A stretch of 64,000 nucleotides of DNA from Candidatus Nomurabacteria bacterium GW2011_GWD2_36_14 (GCA_000991405.1 LBRL01000001.1:315200-379199), one strand, 5' to 3'. Shown: positions 15,904 through 33,440, numbered from the stretch's first letter. The notes: generated by a model from the sequence alone, not told the origin. Translations and numbers: made by a program.

Positions 15904-18132
15904 ATGAAACTATTAATTGTTGAATCACCATCGAAAGCAAAGACAATAGAAAAATATTTGGACGGCGCTTATACCGTACGCGCCTCTGTTGGACATATAC
16001 GCGACTTACCGAAATCAAATAAAGATGCCATAGATATAGAGGGTGGTTTTATTCCTCGTTATGAAATTTCAAAAGGCAAAGAAAAAGTTGTCCATGATTT
16101 GAAAACTCTTTCAGAAAAAGCGGATACCATAATGCTTGCAACCGACCCGGACCGTGAGGGAGAAGCTATCTCTTGGCATTTAAAAGAACTCTTAGATGCT
16201 GACAAGAAAATAAAAGCCAAGATAAAGCGTGTAGCCTTTCATGAAATTACAAAAGAGGCAGTAGAAGAAGCTTTGAAAAATCCTCGTGATATAGACCAAA
16301 GTCTAGTAAAGGCTCAAGAAGCTCGCAGAGTCCTAGATAGACTTGTAGGATATGACCTATCTGGAATAATCTGGAAGAAAGTCCGATACGGCCTTTCGGC
16401 TGGTAGAGTTCAATCTCCTGCACTCCGTATCATAATGGAAAGGGAAAGAGAAATTCGTGCTTTCATACCTGAACAATATTGGACTCTTGAAGGAAACTTT
16501 GAAACACACAAAAAAAACAAAATAACTTTGTCTTGTGTAGAAGAACCTCGCGACGAAAAAATTGTAAAAAACATTTTGGAACTTGGCAATAAAGAAAAGT
16601 GGTATGTAAAAGATTTGAAAACGAGTGAACAGAAGAGGCAACCTCGTGCTCCTTTTACAACCTCTACCCTTCAACAGACAGCAAGTACTAGACTTGGATT
16701 CTCCCCTTCACGAACAATGCAGGTCGCACAGAAACTTTATGAGCAAGGATTTATAACTTACATGCGTACTGATAGTACCAACTTGAGTCTTGTAGCTCAA
16801 AACCAAATAATTGCACTCGTAGAAAAAAAATATGGTAAAGAATATGCCGAGAAACATACATATAAAGCAAAATCAAAAAATGCTCAAGAAGCCCACGAAG
16901 CAATCCGCCCAACACATATAGAACAATTAAATGCTGGAGCAAATGAAGAGCAACACAAACTTTACCAACTCATATGGGAAAGAGTTGTGTCTTCACAAAT
17001 GTCTGATGCTAAATTATTAAAAACAAAAATAACAGCCAACTTAAAAGAAAATAAGATTCCTGACTTTACTGCCAATGGTTCACGAGTACTTTTCCCCGGG
17101 TGGCTCATATGCGAAACAGGGGCTCGAGGAGAGGATGTAGAACTTCCAGAAGTTACCGTTGGCGAAGAATTAAAGCTTATAGAATTAAATAGTACAGAAA
17201 AGGCCACAGAACCACCCAACCGCTATACTGAAGCAGGGCTTGTGAAAGAGCTTGAAGCTCGTGACATAGGAAGACCTTCTACATATGCATCGATAATGAA
17301 AACTCTCGAAGATAGAGGCTACGTCAGAAAAGAAGGCAAGACATTGTTCCCCACTGACACTGGGGACGTGGTCTCAAGTTTCCTTGAAGAAAATTTCGGT
17401 GAATATATTAGTGATACTTTCACTGCGGATATGGAAGATAAGCTTGACGATATATCAAATGGTAAAAGAGAATATATAAAGACATTGAAAGACTTCTATG
17501 CACCATTCCAAAAAGATGTAAAAGAAAAAGAAAAACTCGCCAAGGCTACAAATATGGGAGAAGCTCCAAGTGACATACTTTGTCCTAAGTGTGAAAGTAG
17601 GATGATAGTTAAACTTTCCCGTGGAGGTAAATTCTACTCTTGTAGCAAATACCCAGACTGCGATGGTGCTAGAACTATCGAAGGAGAAGTTCTAGATGGA
17701 CCAAAAGAAACAGGAGAGATTTGCCCAACTTGTGGGGAGAAGAAAGGTAAAAGTGGTGGAGGAAAACTTGTCATAAGAGTCAGACGTGATGGTGGTGGAA
17801 CTTTCATATCATGTTCTCGTTATCCCAAATGCAAATTTATAAAACAAGACGAAGAAGAAATAAAAAGAAAAATGACAGACATAACTTGCCCAACTTGTAA
17901 TAAAGGCAAAATGATGGAAAGAAAGGGACGCTTTGGAATATTCTATTCGTGTTCCAATTACCCAGATTGTAAAAATGCTATTAAAGCAAAACCCACAGGA
18001 AACATTTGTGAACTCTGTCAGTCACTGATGATGGAAGGTACAAAAACTATTCCGGAAAGATGTAGTAATAAAATGTGTAGAAATCATAACCCGCATAAAC
18101 TTGGCGATAATATAAAATCTAACAAAAAATAA
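15904..18132 (+). CDS. topA: DNA topoisomerase I with C-terminal zinc ribbons
   Basis: LIVESPSKAKTI, ATDPDREGEAI, SAGRVQS, ITYMRTDS, C4 zinc fingers. Confidence 0.98.
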   Translation: MKLLIVESPSKAKTIEKYLDGAYTVRASVGHIRDLPKSNKDAIDIEGGFIPRYEISKGKEKVVHDLKTLSEKADTIMLATDPDREGEAISWHLKELLDADKKIKAKIKRVAFHEITKEAVEEALKNPRDIDQSLVKAQEARRVLDRLVGYDLSGIIWKKVRYGLSAGRVQSPALRIIMEREREIRAFIPEQYWTLEGNFETHKKNKITLSCVEEPRDEKIVKNILELGNKEKWYVKDLKTSEQKRQPRAPFTTSTLQQTASTRLGFSPSRTMQVAQKLYEQGFITYMRTDSTNLSLVAQNQIIALVEKKYGKEYAEKHTYKAKSKNAQEAHEAIRPTHIEQLNAGANEEQHKLYQLIWERVVSSQMSDAKLLKTKITANLKENKIPDFTANGSRVLFPGWLICETGARGEDVELPEVTVGEELKLIELNSTEKATEPPNRYTEAGLVKELEARDIGRPSTYASIMKTLEDRGYVRKEGKTLFPTDTGDVVSSFLEENFGEYISDTFTADMEDKLDDISNGKREYIKTLKDFYAPFQKDVKEKEKLAKATNMGEAPSDILCPKCESRMIVKLSRGGKFYSCSKYPDCDGARTIEGEVLDGPKETGEICPTCGEKKGKSGGGKLVIRVRRDGGGTFISCSRYPKCKFIKQDEEEIKRKMTDITCPTCNKGKMMERKGRFGIFYSCSNYPDCKNAIKAKPTGNICELCQSLMMEGTKTIPERCSNKMCRNHNPHKLGDNIKSNKK

Positions 18133-20888: not shown

Positions 20889-21533
20889 ATGGCAAAAATA
20901 GAAAAAAGCCAATATAAAAAGATTAAAAAAATGTATACTGAAGGCAATACAATGTCGGATATAGCAAAATATTTTAAAGTACCTCTTGATGCAATTGTAT
21001 ACGCCATGAGAAAAGCCAAAATCCCCCGTCGATCAATGAGTATGGTTCAAAAAATACGATTCATAAAAAAGCCAGCTTCATTTCAGATTCGTAAAATAAA
21101 TAATGAAAAATCTAAAAAAATTTTAATTGCGGGACTAATGTTATATTGGGCTGAAGGATATAAAACCTCAAAGAGTAGCGGAGTTGATTTTGCAAACAGT
21201 GACTCTGATATGATAATTACTTTTATGAAATTTCTAAGAACTTGCTATAAGCTCGACGAAAAACGTCTGCATGTTTTATTATATTGCTACAATGATCAAA
21301 GTATTTCAGAATTAATGCAATTTTGGAGTAAAAAAACCGGAATCCCAAGTGAACAATTTTCAAAACCATACGTTAGAGAAAAAATTAATACAAATTCAAG
21401 ACAAATGAAGTATGGATTAGTACATATTCGATATAGTGACAAAAAATTAATTTTTGATATACTAAAGCGTATCAATATTTTAAAGAAAGAATTATGCGTC
21501 GGTGGTGGAGTGGTCTATCACAGGAGTCTGTAA
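20889..21533 (+). CDS. HTH + degenerate LAGLIDADG-like endonuclease-fold protein overlapping tRNA-Tyr
   Basis: N-terminal HTH (TMSDIAKYFKVP), GLMLYWAEGYK, FANSDSDMI, FWSKKTGIP; last 13 codons read through the 5' half of tRNA-Tyr. Confidence 0.6.
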   Translation: MAKIEKSQYKKIKKMYTEGNTMSDIAKYFKVPLDAIVYAMRKAKIPRRSMSMVQKIRFIKKPASFQIRKINNEKSKKILIAGLMLYWAEGYKTSKSSGVDFANSDSDMIITFMKFLRTCYKLDEKRLHVLLYCYNDQSISELMQFWSKKTGIPSEQFSKPYVREKINTNSRQMKYGLVHIRYSDKKLIFDILKRINILKKELCVGGGVVYHRSL

Positions 21534-21578
21534 AACTCCCGCCTTCGGGCTTCGTTGGTTCGAATCCAACCCGGCGCA
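21496..21578 (+). tRNA. tRNA-Tyr (GTA)
   Basis: Acceptor GCGTCGG/CCGGCGC, anticodon arm GGAGT-CTGTAAA-ACTCC, long variable arm, TTCGAAT T-loop; CCA not encoded. Confidence 0.95.
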
Positions 21579-21590
21579 CAAAAGAAAAAA

Positions 21591-30872: not shown

Positions 30873-31199
30873 ATGTCCGAATATCGAACAGAGAAAATAA
30901 CAAATCATATTAAGGAGCTTGCTGCTACTTTCATAGAAAGAGAAGCGGGTCCTACTTCCCTTATCACTGTCACTCGTGTGCTTCTTTCTCCTGACAATAA
31001 AAGAGCCAAGATTATGATCAGCGTCCTTCCTCGCGAGAAAGAGAACGCTGCGTTTGGATTCATCAGGAGGAACTTGGGTGACTTGCGCAAACACGTGAAG
31101 AAAGGGCTCAAGATAAACCCTATCCCCTTTCTTGAAGTTGAAATAGATGAAGGTGAAAAGAATCGTCAACGAATTGACGAATTGTTGATTCAAGGTTAA
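30873..31199 (+). CDS. rbfA: Ribosome-binding factor A
   Basis: Follows infB; ITVTRV.LSPD..RAKI, IPFLEVEID. Confidence 0.88.
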   Translation: MSEYRTEKITNHIKELAATFIEREAGPTSLITVTRVLLSPDNKRAKIMISVLPREKENAAFGFIRRNLGDLRKHVKKGLKINPIPFLEVEIDEGEKNRQRIDELLIQG

Positions 31200-31249
31200 A
31201 AATTAGTTGCTAGGTTCTAGTTTCTAGTTTATAGTAGAAAAATAAGTAA

Positions 31250-31321
31250 GGCCTGGTAGCCAAGTGGTAAGGCAGAGATCTGCAAAATCTCTATGCGGCG
31301 GTTCAATTCCGCCCCAGGCCT
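31250..31321 (+). tRNA. tRNA-Cys (GCA)
   Basis: Acceptor GGCCTGG/CCAGGCC, anticodon arm GAGAT-CTGCAAA-ATCTC, TTCAATT T-loop, U73. Confidence 0.95.
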
Positions 31322-31441
31322 CAGCAGGGAGTATGCAAACTACTTTGCATACGTGGCGGAATTGAAAGACTTTTCATTATTTGTTTAATAACAAATTGAA
31401 AAGTACCCGCGACCGTTGGGCGAAATTCCGCCCCAGGCCTC
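31305..31441 (+). mobile_element. tRNA-Cys 3'-associated mini-element bounded by an 18-bp direct repeat of the tRNA 3' end
   Basis: AATTCCGCCCCAGGCCTC at 31305-31322 and 31424-31441; scaffold hairpin 31327-31354; anti-T-arm segment 31355-31366; GTACCCGCG 31403-31411. Confidence 0.65.
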
Positions 31442-31502
31442 CCTAAAGTAAATTTAGTAAAATTTACTCGGGCGAACAATTTTTAACAAAATTGTTTTAG
31501 CC
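31441..31502 (+). repeat. Double-hairpin element CCCTAA-hairpin(AGTA loop)-CGGGCGA-hairpin-TTTAGCC
   Basis: Same junction motifs at 60072-60124 and, on the minus strand, 42773-42818. Confidence 0.75.
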
Positions 31503-31547
31503 AAATAAGTAGCAATTTTTATAATTTTTTGCTAGTATGTTTTATAT

Positions 31548-31631
31548 GCCGGGGTGGCGAAATTGGTAGACGCACTGCTCTTAGGAAGCAGCGAGAGTAA
31601 TCTCATGAAAGTTCAAGTCTTTTCCCCGGCA
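31548..31631 (+). tRNA. tRNA-Leu (TAG)
   Basis: Acceptor GCCGGGG/CCCCGGC, anticodon arm CTGCT-CTTAGGA-AGCAG, long variable arm, TTCAAGT T-loop. Confidence 0.95.
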
Positions 31632-31836
31632 CATATTAAAAAACATTATGAAAATAGTGTTTTTTATATGATGTCGGGGAGTAAGCAAACTTCTTTGCTT
31701 ACGTAGAAGACTTGCACAGCGGAGTCATATTTTCTTACCAAAGAAAATAGATGAGCTGGTGACCAGACAAAACTTTTTGACGAAAAAGTTTTAGTCGAGG
31801 TCAAGAAGCGTACCCGCGGTCTTTTCCCCGGCACCA
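31617..31836 (+). mobile_element. tRNA-Leu 3'-associated mini-element bounded by a 16-bp direct repeat of the tRNA 3' end
   Basis: GTCTTTTCCCCGGCAC at 31617-31632 and 31819-31834 (downstream copy ends ACCA); scaffold 31677-31704; anti-T-arm segment 31705-31716; GTACCCGCG 31810-31818. Confidence 0.65.
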
Positions 31837-32483
31837 AGTTTTTTGGATTGCTTCAAAATTTTAAAGGCTATATTTCTTTTCCTAGATAAAGAAGTATTTT
31901 TACCTTTATATATAAATTGTAAAACTTTTATACTATCTTCTTTTGCAAAAGTTAATGTATAAACTGATGATTCTTTAGGTAGACAAATTGAACCACCTTT
32001 AACTTCAAATAATTCAATACAAGATTTTAATATCCACTCTAGAAATAATTTACTAGCTGAACAAAGCCTTACCTTGTATTGAGGATGCTTACTTTCCTTA
32101 TGTTTTGAAATTGTAATACTTCCATCTCCATCAATACATCCTCGAAGAAAATCTTTAAAATATTCTTTTGGTATTTTTAATTCATTTATCGTTTTAGATT
32201 TTTTGGGAGTAATTCCTATACTTAATAAAAACTCAAAAAAGTTTTTATCTCCAAATTGTAAAACATAATATTTCTTATCTTTTGATCCACCCCGAGCCTT
32301 TTTGCCAATAAGGTTGTTGATTCCTAAACATTTCTTACAATTTAACAGCATTTCTTCATCTTTTGAAGTAATATGAATATGCCGTAAATCTGGAGATAGA
32401 TTACCATCTGTAGCAATTACTCCTATAACATAAGCAAAATCACCATTCCATTTTATTTTCACATTCCCCTTTCGATATGCCAT
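31791..32483 (-). CDS. LAGLIDADG homing-endonuclease family protein (two motifs)
   Basis: FAYVIGVIATDGNL and FLRGCIDGDGSI; AT-rich, Lys-rich; C-terminus read through the antisense of the duplicated tRNA-Leu end. Confidence 0.85.
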   Translation of the reverse strand: MAYRKGNVKIKWNGDFAYVIGVIATDGNLSPDLRHIHITSKDEEMLLNCKKCLGINNLIGKKARGGSKDKKYYVLQFGDKNFFEFLLSIGITPKKSKTINELKIPKEYFKDFLRGCIDGDGSITISKHKESKHPQYKVRLCSASKLFLEWILKSCIELFEVKGGSICLPKESSVYTLTFAKEDSIKVLQFIYKGKNTSLSRKRNIAFKILKQSKKLGAGEKTAGTLLDLD

Positions 32484-32570
32484 ACACCCATTATACTAAA
32501 ACATATAGCGTCTGCCAATAAAAATATTAATTATATTTCATTTATGAATGCTTCATGCTAAACTACCCTT

Positions 32571-33440
32571 ATGTCCCTCGAAAAGACTGCTCTTAAAACT
32601 ACATACTTTAGTATTCTAAGTAATGCTCTTCTAGCTATCATCAAATGGACGGCTGGTTACTTTGGCCACTCTTACGCCCTTATCGCTGATGCCATAGAAT
32701 CCACCACAGACATCTTTTCTTCTGCTTTGGTACTCTTCGGTATCAAATATTCAAGTAAACCTGCCGACAAGAATCACCCATACGGACACGGAAGAATAGA
32801 GCCACTCGTCACTTTTCTAGTTGTAGGTTTTCTAATTATTTCTGCAATTATCATAGCTCGCCAAGCCATCATAAATATTGGAACTCCCCACGAATTACCA
32901 AAGTTTTATACTTTATTCATCTTGGCTGGAATTATAATATGGAAAGAAGCTTCTTATCGATTAGTCGTCAGGAAAAGTAAGGAAACCAAAAGCTCATCTC
33001 TCAAGGCCGACGCTTGGCATCATAGAAGCGACGCTATCACCTCTGTAGCTGCATTTATAGGTATCACTATTGCACTTATCTTAGGCAAAGGCTACGAATC
33101 TGCTGATGATTGGGCCGCACTCTTTGCAGCAGGTTTCATCCTGTATAATTGCTATCTTATATTTCGCCCTGCATTAGGAGAAGTTATGGATGAGCATACC
33201 CATGATGATGTTGTCATGAAAGTGAGAGAAATATCTAAAATAGTAGAAGGCGTCATAGAGACAGAGAAATGCTTCATTAGAAAGACGGGCATGAAGTACC
33301 ATGTTGACCTACATATTGTTGTCGATGGAGCGATATCAGTAAAGGAAGGCCACGCAATATCACACGTACTGAAGGATAAAATAAAGGAAGAAATGCCAGA
33401 AATTTCCAATATTTTAATTCACATTGAACCTAAAAATTAA
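32571..33440 (+). CDS. Cation diffusion facilitator (FieF-like) transporter
   Basis: ALIADAIES, PADKNHPYGHGRIE, ADAWHHRSD, IHIEP. Confidence 0.95.
   Translation: MSLEKTALKTTYFSILSNALLAIIKWTAGYFGHSYALIADAIESTTDIFSSALVLFGIKYSSKPADKNHPYGHGRIEPLVTFLVVGFLIISAIIIARQAIINIGTPHELPKFYTLFILAGIIIWKEASYRLVVRKSKETKSSSLKADAWHHRSDAITSVAAFIGITIALILGKGYESADDWAALFAAGFILYNCYLIFRPALGEVMDEHTHDDVVMKVREISKIVEGVIETEKCFIRKTGMKYHVDLHIVVDGAISVKEGHAISHVLKDKIKEEMPEISNILIHIEPKN

Follow-up and report, generated by a model that had tools for sequence, protein, structure and literature searches.

In the window, the 64,000-nucleotide stretch of Candidatus Nomurabacteria bacterium GW2011_GWD2_36_14 that we analysed, tRNA-Cys and tRNA-Leu are each followed by a member of a family of short elements that is real, mobile and apparently undescribed. 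It is very probable that these are mobile insertions that supply the gene they enter with a surrogate end. Our main reading goes further, and we give it a probability of roughly 0.5: each is a mobile mini-element that is not autonomous, acts as a folded single strand of DNA and brings its own targeting arm along. The parts of the two elements, a neighbouring gene and an empty target site lie as follows.

18038–18050 (+): empty target site G-T-A^C at the 3′ end of topA (topA = 15904–18132)
31250–31322 (+): tRNA-Cys(GCA), with T54 at 31302 and C56 at 31304; its 3′ end is the upstream repeat copy
31330–31354 (+): hairpin A of the Cys element, an A and a 9-bp stem with a 4-nt loop, then GT; extruded, on the predicted fold, opposite the tRNA 65/66 junction
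31355–31366 (+): antisense arm X′ of the Cys element, 12/12 complementary to tRNA-Cys 54–65
31367–31423 (+): body of the Cys element, two hairpins, a third body type, with an orthologue in genome G008 (locus L010)
31424–31442 (+): downstream copy of tRNA-Cys 57–73, the displaced original end
31548–31632 (+): tRNA-Leu(TAG), with T54 at 31612 and C56 at 31614
31633–31671 (+): AT-rich terminator-like palindrome of the Leu element
31672–31679 (+): antisense arm Y′ of the Leu element, pairing with the Leu acceptor 3′ strand
31680–31704 (+): hairpin A of the Leu element
31705–31716 (+): antisense arm X′ of the Leu element, 10/12 against tRNA-Leu 54–65
31717–31801 (+): body of the Leu element, with two hairpins; its last bases, G-G-T, adjoin C56 of the downstream copy
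31802–31836 (+): downstream copy of tRNA-Leu 56–76, ending ACCA; empty alleles at L012 and L013
31806–31819 (+): hairpin B, 14 nt, set between positions 59 and 60 of the downstream Leu copy
31791–32483 (−): LAGLIDADG endonuclease ORF with its stop codon inside the Leu element; a neighbour, not part of the element

The inserts measure 119 bp at tRNA-Cys and ~200 bp at tRNA-Leu, and neither contains an ORF; the Cys element lacks both the terminator-like palindrome and most of its acceptor-antisense arm. A sequence-only reading of this DNA had described one scaffold carrying segments matched to each tRNA, and its measurements could be reproduced. The 28-nt blocks at 31327–31354 and 31677–31704 differ at positions 8, 16 and 23, of which 8 and 23 are compensatory and 16 lies in the loop; the 12 nt that follow are the perfect reverse complement of the T-arm at Cys and match it at ten of twelve positions at Leu; and the segment before the Leu block is antisense to the acceptor strand with one G·T. 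The direct repeat spans 18 bp at Cys (31305–31322 and 31424–31441) and 16 bp at Leu (31617–31632 and 31819–31834), with ACCA ending the downstream Leu copy only. The Leu repeat, though real, truly starts at C56 (31802) and is broken by the 14-nt hairpin. Similarly, the motif GTACCCGCG, which had been taken as shared, is present at 31403 and 31810 but belongs to two different modules, being a variant of hairpin B within the downstream tRNA copy in Leu and body sequence, 12 nt before the downstream copy, in Cys.

Against 200 shuffles, the Cys region folds with z = −5.4 and the Leu region with z = −9.7. A contig from another run, X6, covers 31265–32096 with zero differences, which rules out an assembly artefact. 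Among Rfam covariance models, only tRNA reaches threshold across 31100–32700 and only tRNA or tmRNA at 20 further loci; a check against described families, which the earlier reading had called for, thus returned none besides tRNAs. Hammerhead, H/ACA-pocket and HDV-like theta ribozymes were each set aside, as no core motif was seen by eye and Rfam gave no match. The LAGLIDADG ORF carries two motifs, and at its C-terminal end it now extends across the displaced tRNA-Leu end and into the element. As a driver this gene is rejected, for it adjoins tRNA-Leu without an element in genomes G002 and G009, and a crude pattern finds no LAGLIDADG motif among 526 flanking ORFs.

The genome (G000; 803 kb in 4 contigs, 99% complete) has 43 tRNA and tmRNA genes by ARAGORN. 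By our reading of the matches, elements stand behind 14 of the 43: Thr-TGT, Ala, Glu-CTC, Val-GAC, Lys-CTT, Cys, Leu-TAG, Gln-CTG, tmRNA, Gly-TCC, Ser-TGA, Leu-GAG, His and Ser-GGA. Together with the folding scores and the X6 contig, this recurrence shows that the layout is not chance. A fifteenth element, still intact, has arms and a repeat that match tRNA-Lys(TTT), 28 kb away, and lies behind a serine-recombinase island; as the island separates the tRNA from its mini-element, the element is the older of the two. The island itself (G000:C1:600100–627790, L376 in part) is 27.8 kb long, sits at the tip of tRNA-Lys(TTT) and has two large serine recombinases and a gene pair resembling a SIR2-HerA defence system. 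A third serine recombinase adjoins tRNA-Asn (C1:261096). Four body-only copies occur away from tRNAs in this genome. Body modules also sit in long palindromes away from tRNAs at C1:283147, 453629 and 540300 (L185, L186, L189), intergenic or after gene stops, one of them just past the Xer-like gene. Two side observations concern the tRNA set and the window: ARAGORN calls unusual anticodons in tRNA-Ser(ACT) at C1:459602 and tRNA-Arg(GCG) at C1:638737, along with two Thr(TGT) and two Pro(TGG) genes, and a 214-aa ORF at 20889–21533 (+) of the window, with no NCBIfam match, overlaps the same-strand tRNA-Tyr (21496–21579).

Relatives in our named collection are Patescibacteria. The exact 25-nt hairpin-A pattern occurs at at least 120 loci, mostly in Patescibacteria and also in Elusimicrobia, where it stands behind tRNAs (L078, L081, L087, L109, L112, L129, L136), and in Campylobacterales, where copies lie directly after stop codons, in tandem (L066, L182). 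The core of the type-I body is found in 66/93 genus genomes (control 0) and 142/201 genomes of the order (519 matches; control 18 matches), the exact hairpin-A core in 7/301 genomes across the phylum, and exact hairpin B in 14/201. Across 23 sequence variants hairpin A retains its 9 bp, with several kinds of base pair at each position, although the variants were chosen by a pairing filter and only their variety counts. The earlier view of the 28-nt block as a constant part of the scaffold is not supported: the hairpin is optional and absent from most type-I elements. Perfect tandem arrays exist, of 139 bp × 3 and 149 bp × 5. A second kind of left end, a short G/C hairpin in which we saw no antisense arm, is joined to the same body (G000:C2:34733 = L188; L255, L298, L260, L261, L274, L286) and has gone either into a duplicated 5S rRNA end, where it runs the opposite way, or into partial 5′ tRNA copies.

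If the arm is matched to its site, it should follow the neighbouring tRNA across loci. Among 124 distinct listed hairpin-A matches, 92 have a same-strand tRNA or tmRNA within 700 nt; many of the others are cut by contig ends and some are truly elsewhere. For covariation we used the 78 matches within 80 nt of a tRNA, minus one duplicate, that is 77 elements at 37 tRNA types, scoring positions 61–72 and allowing two registers for real and shuffled pairings alike. Arms match their own tRNA at 9.75 of 12 positions, whereas shuffled pairings give 5.68 ± 0.17 and never exceed 6.26 in 2000 shuffles, and the own tRNA is best or tied in 65/77, which bears out both the proposed scaffold with target-matched arms and the predicted complementarity to the adjacent tRNA. 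Hairpin A sits at 65/66 in 38 of these elements and at 64/65 in 39. X′ and Y′ both run antisense to the sense strand, and their targets are contiguous. Arm mismatches comprise 28 G·T and 25 A·C, giving no wobble bias and hence no strand bias from wobble; they cluster at 57/58 as purine–purine pairs, with A58:G making up 11/14 mismatches. Reverse transcription of mature tRNA with A58 misread was considered for the position-58 mismatches and rejected, as G000 has no RT and protein genes are also targets.

An exact repeat of positions 61–67 lies within 300 bp downstream in 43/77 elements, and the remaining 34 have no exact 7-mer repeat in that span. The 43 repeats start at position 55 (1), 56 (13), 57 (4), 59 (7), 60 (17) or 61 (1); those starting at 59 or 60 mostly meet a 2-nt or 14-nt insert and then continue to 56/57. 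In G008 the arm of the orthologous Cys element tracks the altered T-stem of that species, and the downstream remnant resembles the allele of our genome, so arms also keep evolving in place.

The duplication begins at a fixed point. Of 136 type-I bodies examined, 78 are distinct and are immediately preceded by 10 nt of which at least 9 are antisense to a sequence further upstream; the other 58 were dropped as duplicates or for having no parse or no such match. In 37/40 type-I elements with a recognisable repeat, the first duplicated base lies exactly 2 nt into the target paired by the arm. The base before the target is G in 77/78, and the duplication opens with C in 71/78; the universal G53 makes the T-loop rows non-independent, and tRNA tips, topA and rplL have the G too. 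The two host-only bases vary (TT, TC, TG, CA, CG, GT, GA, CC, TA) and X′ follows them, while the body's own end reads G-A-C^C. This register was computed on type-I bodies only, and the copy at the Cys element starts at 57, not 56.

We then compared filled and empty sites. With presence counted over 23 genus loci at rbfA, the element body follows tRNA-Cys in 4/21 genus loci and tRNA-Leu in 7/18. In G016, which is empty, the sequence directly after tRNA-Cys corresponds to that after the downstream copy here (56/66 identical, versus 31/66 for the post-tRNA sequence). In G002, tRNA-Leu adjoins the LAGLIDADG gene (108/150 versus 84/150). These two comparisons show that the downstream copy is the old end and that the endonuclease is a bystander. 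Identical type-I bodies, among 57 labelled ones, occur at Leu-TAG, Val-GAC, Leu-TAA, Trp and Leu-CAA in five species, and body similarity is somewhat higher for same-target pairs (0.76 versus 0.68). Empty alleles in relatives, which the sequence-only reading had asked to be sought, were found at tRNA-Cys, tRNA-Leu and topA; its view of the duplicated 3′ ends as an integration footprint stands as a restored tRNA plus a displaced, co-oriented 3′ fragment, and that of a non-autonomous element that comes and goes and is retargeted to many tRNAs agrees with the empty relatives and with identical bodies at different tRNAs. As judged by comparison of genomes, insertion at a fixed junction, a surrogate gene end, a displaced old end and movement between species and sites are well supported.

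Targeting is not restricted to tRNAs, as had been proposed; elements also lie at the ends of topA, rplL and rpsI and at tRNA tips. In a body-anchored set of 100 matches from 90 loci, out of ~158 matches, 63 lie within 330 nt of a called tRNA or tmRNA, and among the other 37 are members of arrays, tRNAs that are cut, and the 3′ ends of rplL (3), rpsI (2), topA (2) and 5S rRNA. Here topA was identified by analysis, while the identities of rplL, rpsI and 5S are presumptive. In 11/90 genus genomes having the motif, the final codons of topA are present twice, on either side of an element; the topA of the window is empty. Over 13 pairs of copies (11 in the genus, 2 outside) compared at 20 codons each, 81 codon differences are synonymous and 9 non-synonymous, and 84/113 base changes fall at third positions. 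Three pairs are identical and look like fresh insertions (L202, L224, L225). In L220 the working upstream C-terminus is of a foreign type and the genus-typical end lies downstream. The mostly synonymous divergence and L220 argue that both copies were once working gene ends and that units carry a surrogate end between lineages.

The zone of topA paired by X′ behaves differently from the rest. In 6/7 diverged genus pairs the copies are identical at all 4 degenerate sites there; degenerate sites differ at 3/28 under the arm versus 53/119 beyond it, the baseline for unrelated alleles being 46%. The exceptions are L198 and the two pairs from outside the genus (L142, L172), which differ at 2–3 of the 4 arm-paired sites. 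The topA X′ pairs with sequence 85–115 nt away, and in L225 and L101 the downstream copy also contains the arm. Empty topA alleles lack X′: among 38, it is matched 10/10 in one, a truncated element, and 9/10 in 5, which are AT-rich. Separately, across the topA 3′ ends L190–L239, TCN and AGY serine codons alternate at one conserved position in sister species, which suggests frequent allele exchange in this 3′ segment. Two different topA ends occur on different contigs of one assembly in G257 (L226/L227) and G005 (L228/L229), possibly mixed bins.

We next consider the strand on which the element acts. GCGNAGC is described as a mini-hairpin of exceptional stability as DNA and, in the case measured, of far lower stability as RNA (PMC13037366). 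In 122 element regions totalling 34 kb the sense strand has 47 copies of it and the other strand 4; the corresponding counts in 269 kb of flanks are 38 and 55. Body loops show the same asymmetry, sense versus other strand, for GNA (44 versus 8) and C(GNA)G (13 versus 0), with GNRA at 4 versus 4, and loops of the terminator palindromes are GNRA in 12 versus 1; these counts come from homologous, non-independent elements and are therefore overstated. The sense strand folds better in 102/114 elements with DNA parameters and in 96/114 with RNA parameters. Replichore bias is absent in a small sample (6 leading, 7 lagging, p = 0.74; empty tRNAs on C1, 16/13). On these loop and folding comparisons the element probably acts as single-stranded DNA, most likely the folded non-template strand, and the likeness to guide or bridge-type RNAs drawn by the sequence-only reading gives way to a single-stranded DNA interpretation.

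The sequence-only reading had asked for a co-occurring recombinase or nuclease gene to be sought. Among the nearest downstream ORFs 0/67 are recombinases or transposases, and 526 flanking ORFs hold no recurrent mobile-gene cluster and, by pattern, one tyrosine-recombinase-like ORF. No autonomous copy of the element was seen. Excised circles had likewise been suggested; no excision or circle joint appears in four contig runs, which drop rare variants. G000 encodes one Xer-like recombinase, four RAYT-like Y1 genes and three serine recombinases. Searches there for RT, IS110 and Nop-domain matches were negative (IS110 and Nop controls positive), and Y2 (IS91/rolling-circle) transposases gave no match in G000, but none in the controls either. 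The RAYT-like Y1 genes (211–234 aa; C1:45805–46461, C1:247903–248607, C1:482103–482738 and C2:50006–50656; L032–L034) are each flanked on both sides by a short palindrome of their own, unrelated to the element. Palindromes likewise flank the small GIY-YIG ORFs at C2:81117 and C1:699177, and both kinds of gene look like single-gene mobile units.

Y1_Tnp is weakly enriched in carriers (93/142 versus 28/59 non-carriers, 49 carriers being without it, and kin not independent), including within the genus (57/66 versus 18/27). We found no linked Y1 gene at elements, and Y1 occurs in 1/5 of the Elusimicrobia and Campylobacterales carriers. Large serine recombinases show no association (100/142 versus 38/59, p = 0.41) and are rejected; 11 carriers have neither Y1 nor a serine recombinase. 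GIY-YIG, present in 198/201 genomes, is uninformative as a driver, and a link to Xer fails because the body copy after the single tyrosine recombinase gene of G000 is found in 1/30 loci of that gene only. Viral contigs contain no match for three element patterns, five matches of a fourth being chance matches in coding sequence, and the plasmid and phage record sets contain no element match.

These observations can be arranged in a model. A unit begins with a copy of the target gene's end from the G-N-N^C junction (C56 in a tRNA, the corresponding base at topA, rplL, rpsI or a tRNA tip), followed usually by a terminator and by the 10–12-nt X′ arm, often preceded by an acceptor-antisense arm and hairpin A, and ends in the 55–90-bp two-hairpin body, closing at a second G-N-N^C. 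As the comparisons of alleles show, insertion keeps the gene intact and pushes its old end downstream. X′ is predicted to pair with the first 8–10 duplicated bases and the 2 host-only bases; its last two bases could thus serve as a 2-nt toehold on the target strand, with a short branch migration, fixing the cut site. The sense strand may fold into a junction of the X/X′ helix and the two body hairpins, at which a trans-acting strand transferase would exchange strands at G-N-N^C. That this enzyme is of the HUH/Y1 type is a first guess and a doubtful one. The single strand would probably be the non-template strand that is displaced in highly transcribed genes, or else transforming DNA. Units move between species at the same site, swapping gene ends, and bodies are exchanged or moved to new sites. 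In this model the arm is a plausible guide that could instead be written at insertion, and we put its use in targeting at about an even chance. The fullest version, in which a 65-bp scaffold is sent to any G-N-N^C site by a 10–12-nt DNA arm, on the displaced strand of highly transcribed genes, by one enzyme common to Patescibacteria, swapping tRNA and essential-protein 3′ ends between species, is tentative.

A possible, though not probable, alternative is that the body alone is mobile, MITE-like, and inserts at G-N-N^C near transcript ends, the arm being a footprint and not a guide; duplication and arm would arise during the insertion itself, through fold-back or template-switch synthesis, and hairpin gene conversion would keep them matched. 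Identical bodies that carry different perfect arms are more readily accounted for in this way, and the fresh-looking topA insertions with identical copies, the G008 arm that tracks its own T-stem, mismatches without wobble bias and the arm within the downstream copy of L225 and L101 all fit. However, the foreign, synonymously diverged gene ends upstream of the body indicate that whole units travel, the distance over which the topA X′ pairs is not that of a simple fold-back, and hairpin A keeps a fixed register while the purine–purine mismatches at 57/58 persist, which conversion would erase.

It is unlikely that no dedicated enzyme exists and that the elements, of rare origin, spread through natural transformation and the homologous recombination of the host, made possible by the homology of both flanks to the target gene, with arrays arising by unequal crossing over. 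The lack of a linked or required recombinase is consistent with this, as are mixed upstream and downstream alleles and the tandem arrays, but it leaves unexplained the single-base register at dozens of unrelated sites, G-N-N^C at both junctions and the same hairpin in Elusimicrobia and Campylobacterales. Still more improbable is an RNA-level element or bridge-type guide RNA, whose transcript would fold and guide a recombinase or be reverse-transcribed into the site: elements are co-oriented with transcription, at transcript ends, and their sense strand folds better with RNA parameters as well, but G000 has no RT, IS110 or Nop-domain match, body loops are of the DNA-type GNA and not GNRA, both arms pair with the same strand, unlike TIGR spacers, and the terminator usually precedes the arm. 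Least probable of all is the pre-tRNA-processing alternative of the sequence-only reading, a non-mobile cis RNA structure controlling processing or termination and co-evolving with the tRNA, for although arm and tRNA co-vary tightly and the Leu element with its downstream copy can be drawn as a tRNA-like acceptor/T helix ending ACCA, presence is patchy at the same tRNA in sister species, the same body lies in protein-coding ends, the downstream copy is the displaced old end, the element stranded from tRNA-Lys is intact and no Rfam family besides tRNAs is matched.

Returning to the targeted single-stranded DNA reading, several known systems share parts of it. Like the element, CTX-phage attP folds as a single strand that has extrahelical features and a terminal part that varies; on the predicted fold of the element, these features are hairpin A at 64/65 or 65/66 and the 2-nt or 14-nt insert at 59/60. 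The IS110 bridge RNA also joins a constant scaffold to variable target-complementary segments; by contrast, the arms described here pair with one strand in cis, and no IS110 was found in G000. Integron attC sites resemble the element in the folded single strand (predicted here), fixed extrahelical features and variable terminal part, but the RYYYAAC/GTTRRRY pair occurs in 0/77 elements, there is no integron integrase, and the stem is host gene sequence (PMC5027507). TIGR-Tas has the same division into constant scaffold and variable target-complementary segments; here, however, both arms pair with one strand, in cis, no Nop protein was found in G000, and the loops suggest DNA (PMC12045711). Islands that target tRNA and tmRNA genes share the restored gene with displaced 3′ fragment, crossover in the T-loop region and tandem arrays, whereas our elements are 100–250 bp long, lack an integrase, have a site-matched antisense arm and place one scaffold at at least 37 tRNA types and protein-gene ends (Islander, PMC4383910).

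The IS200/IS605 elements have hairpins on the top strand and, 5′ of a hairpin, a short guide that pairs with bases of the host where insertion takes place; in IS608 this guide is 4 nt long and the target is not duplicated, and targets of 12–17 nt have been engineered by changing its DNA (PMC5934647). In the predicted pairing, X′ may occupy a comparable place, ending adjacent, by an 8-nt motif, to the first body hairpin and pairing with the 2 host-only bases. Unlike IS608, as described there, the element has an arm of 10–12 nt, duplicates the gene end, has no linked TnpA and shows no replichore bias (PMC5934647). REP, BIME and REPIN elements moved in trans by RAYT are likewise small, palindromic, mosaic and multi-copy at transcript ends, but a GTAG/GTGG foot is present at hairpin A in 5/77 elements only, the arms here are variable and site-specific (PMC6006769), and the four RAYT-like genes of G000 are flanked by other palindromes. 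The family thus misses a defining feature of each system compared. We found no description of it in the openly accessible literature, bioRxiv supplements excepted, so that a motif given only in a supplement could be missed.

Elements of this kind will mislead island finders and assemblers at tRNA genes. Because the junction is fixed and the consensus short, the model is directly testable with oligonucleotides. If the arm is a guide, the family would be a natural counterpart of engineered IS608, with insertion aimed by 10–12 DNA bases, and its ~65-bp scaffold would make an unusually small programmable integration system. Read more cautiously, the family is still an abundant and apparently undescribed kind of mobile DNA, with one core in 142/201 genomes of the order, in a phylum thought to be genome-streamlined, and its members replace the ends of tRNAs, TopA, L7/L12 and S9.
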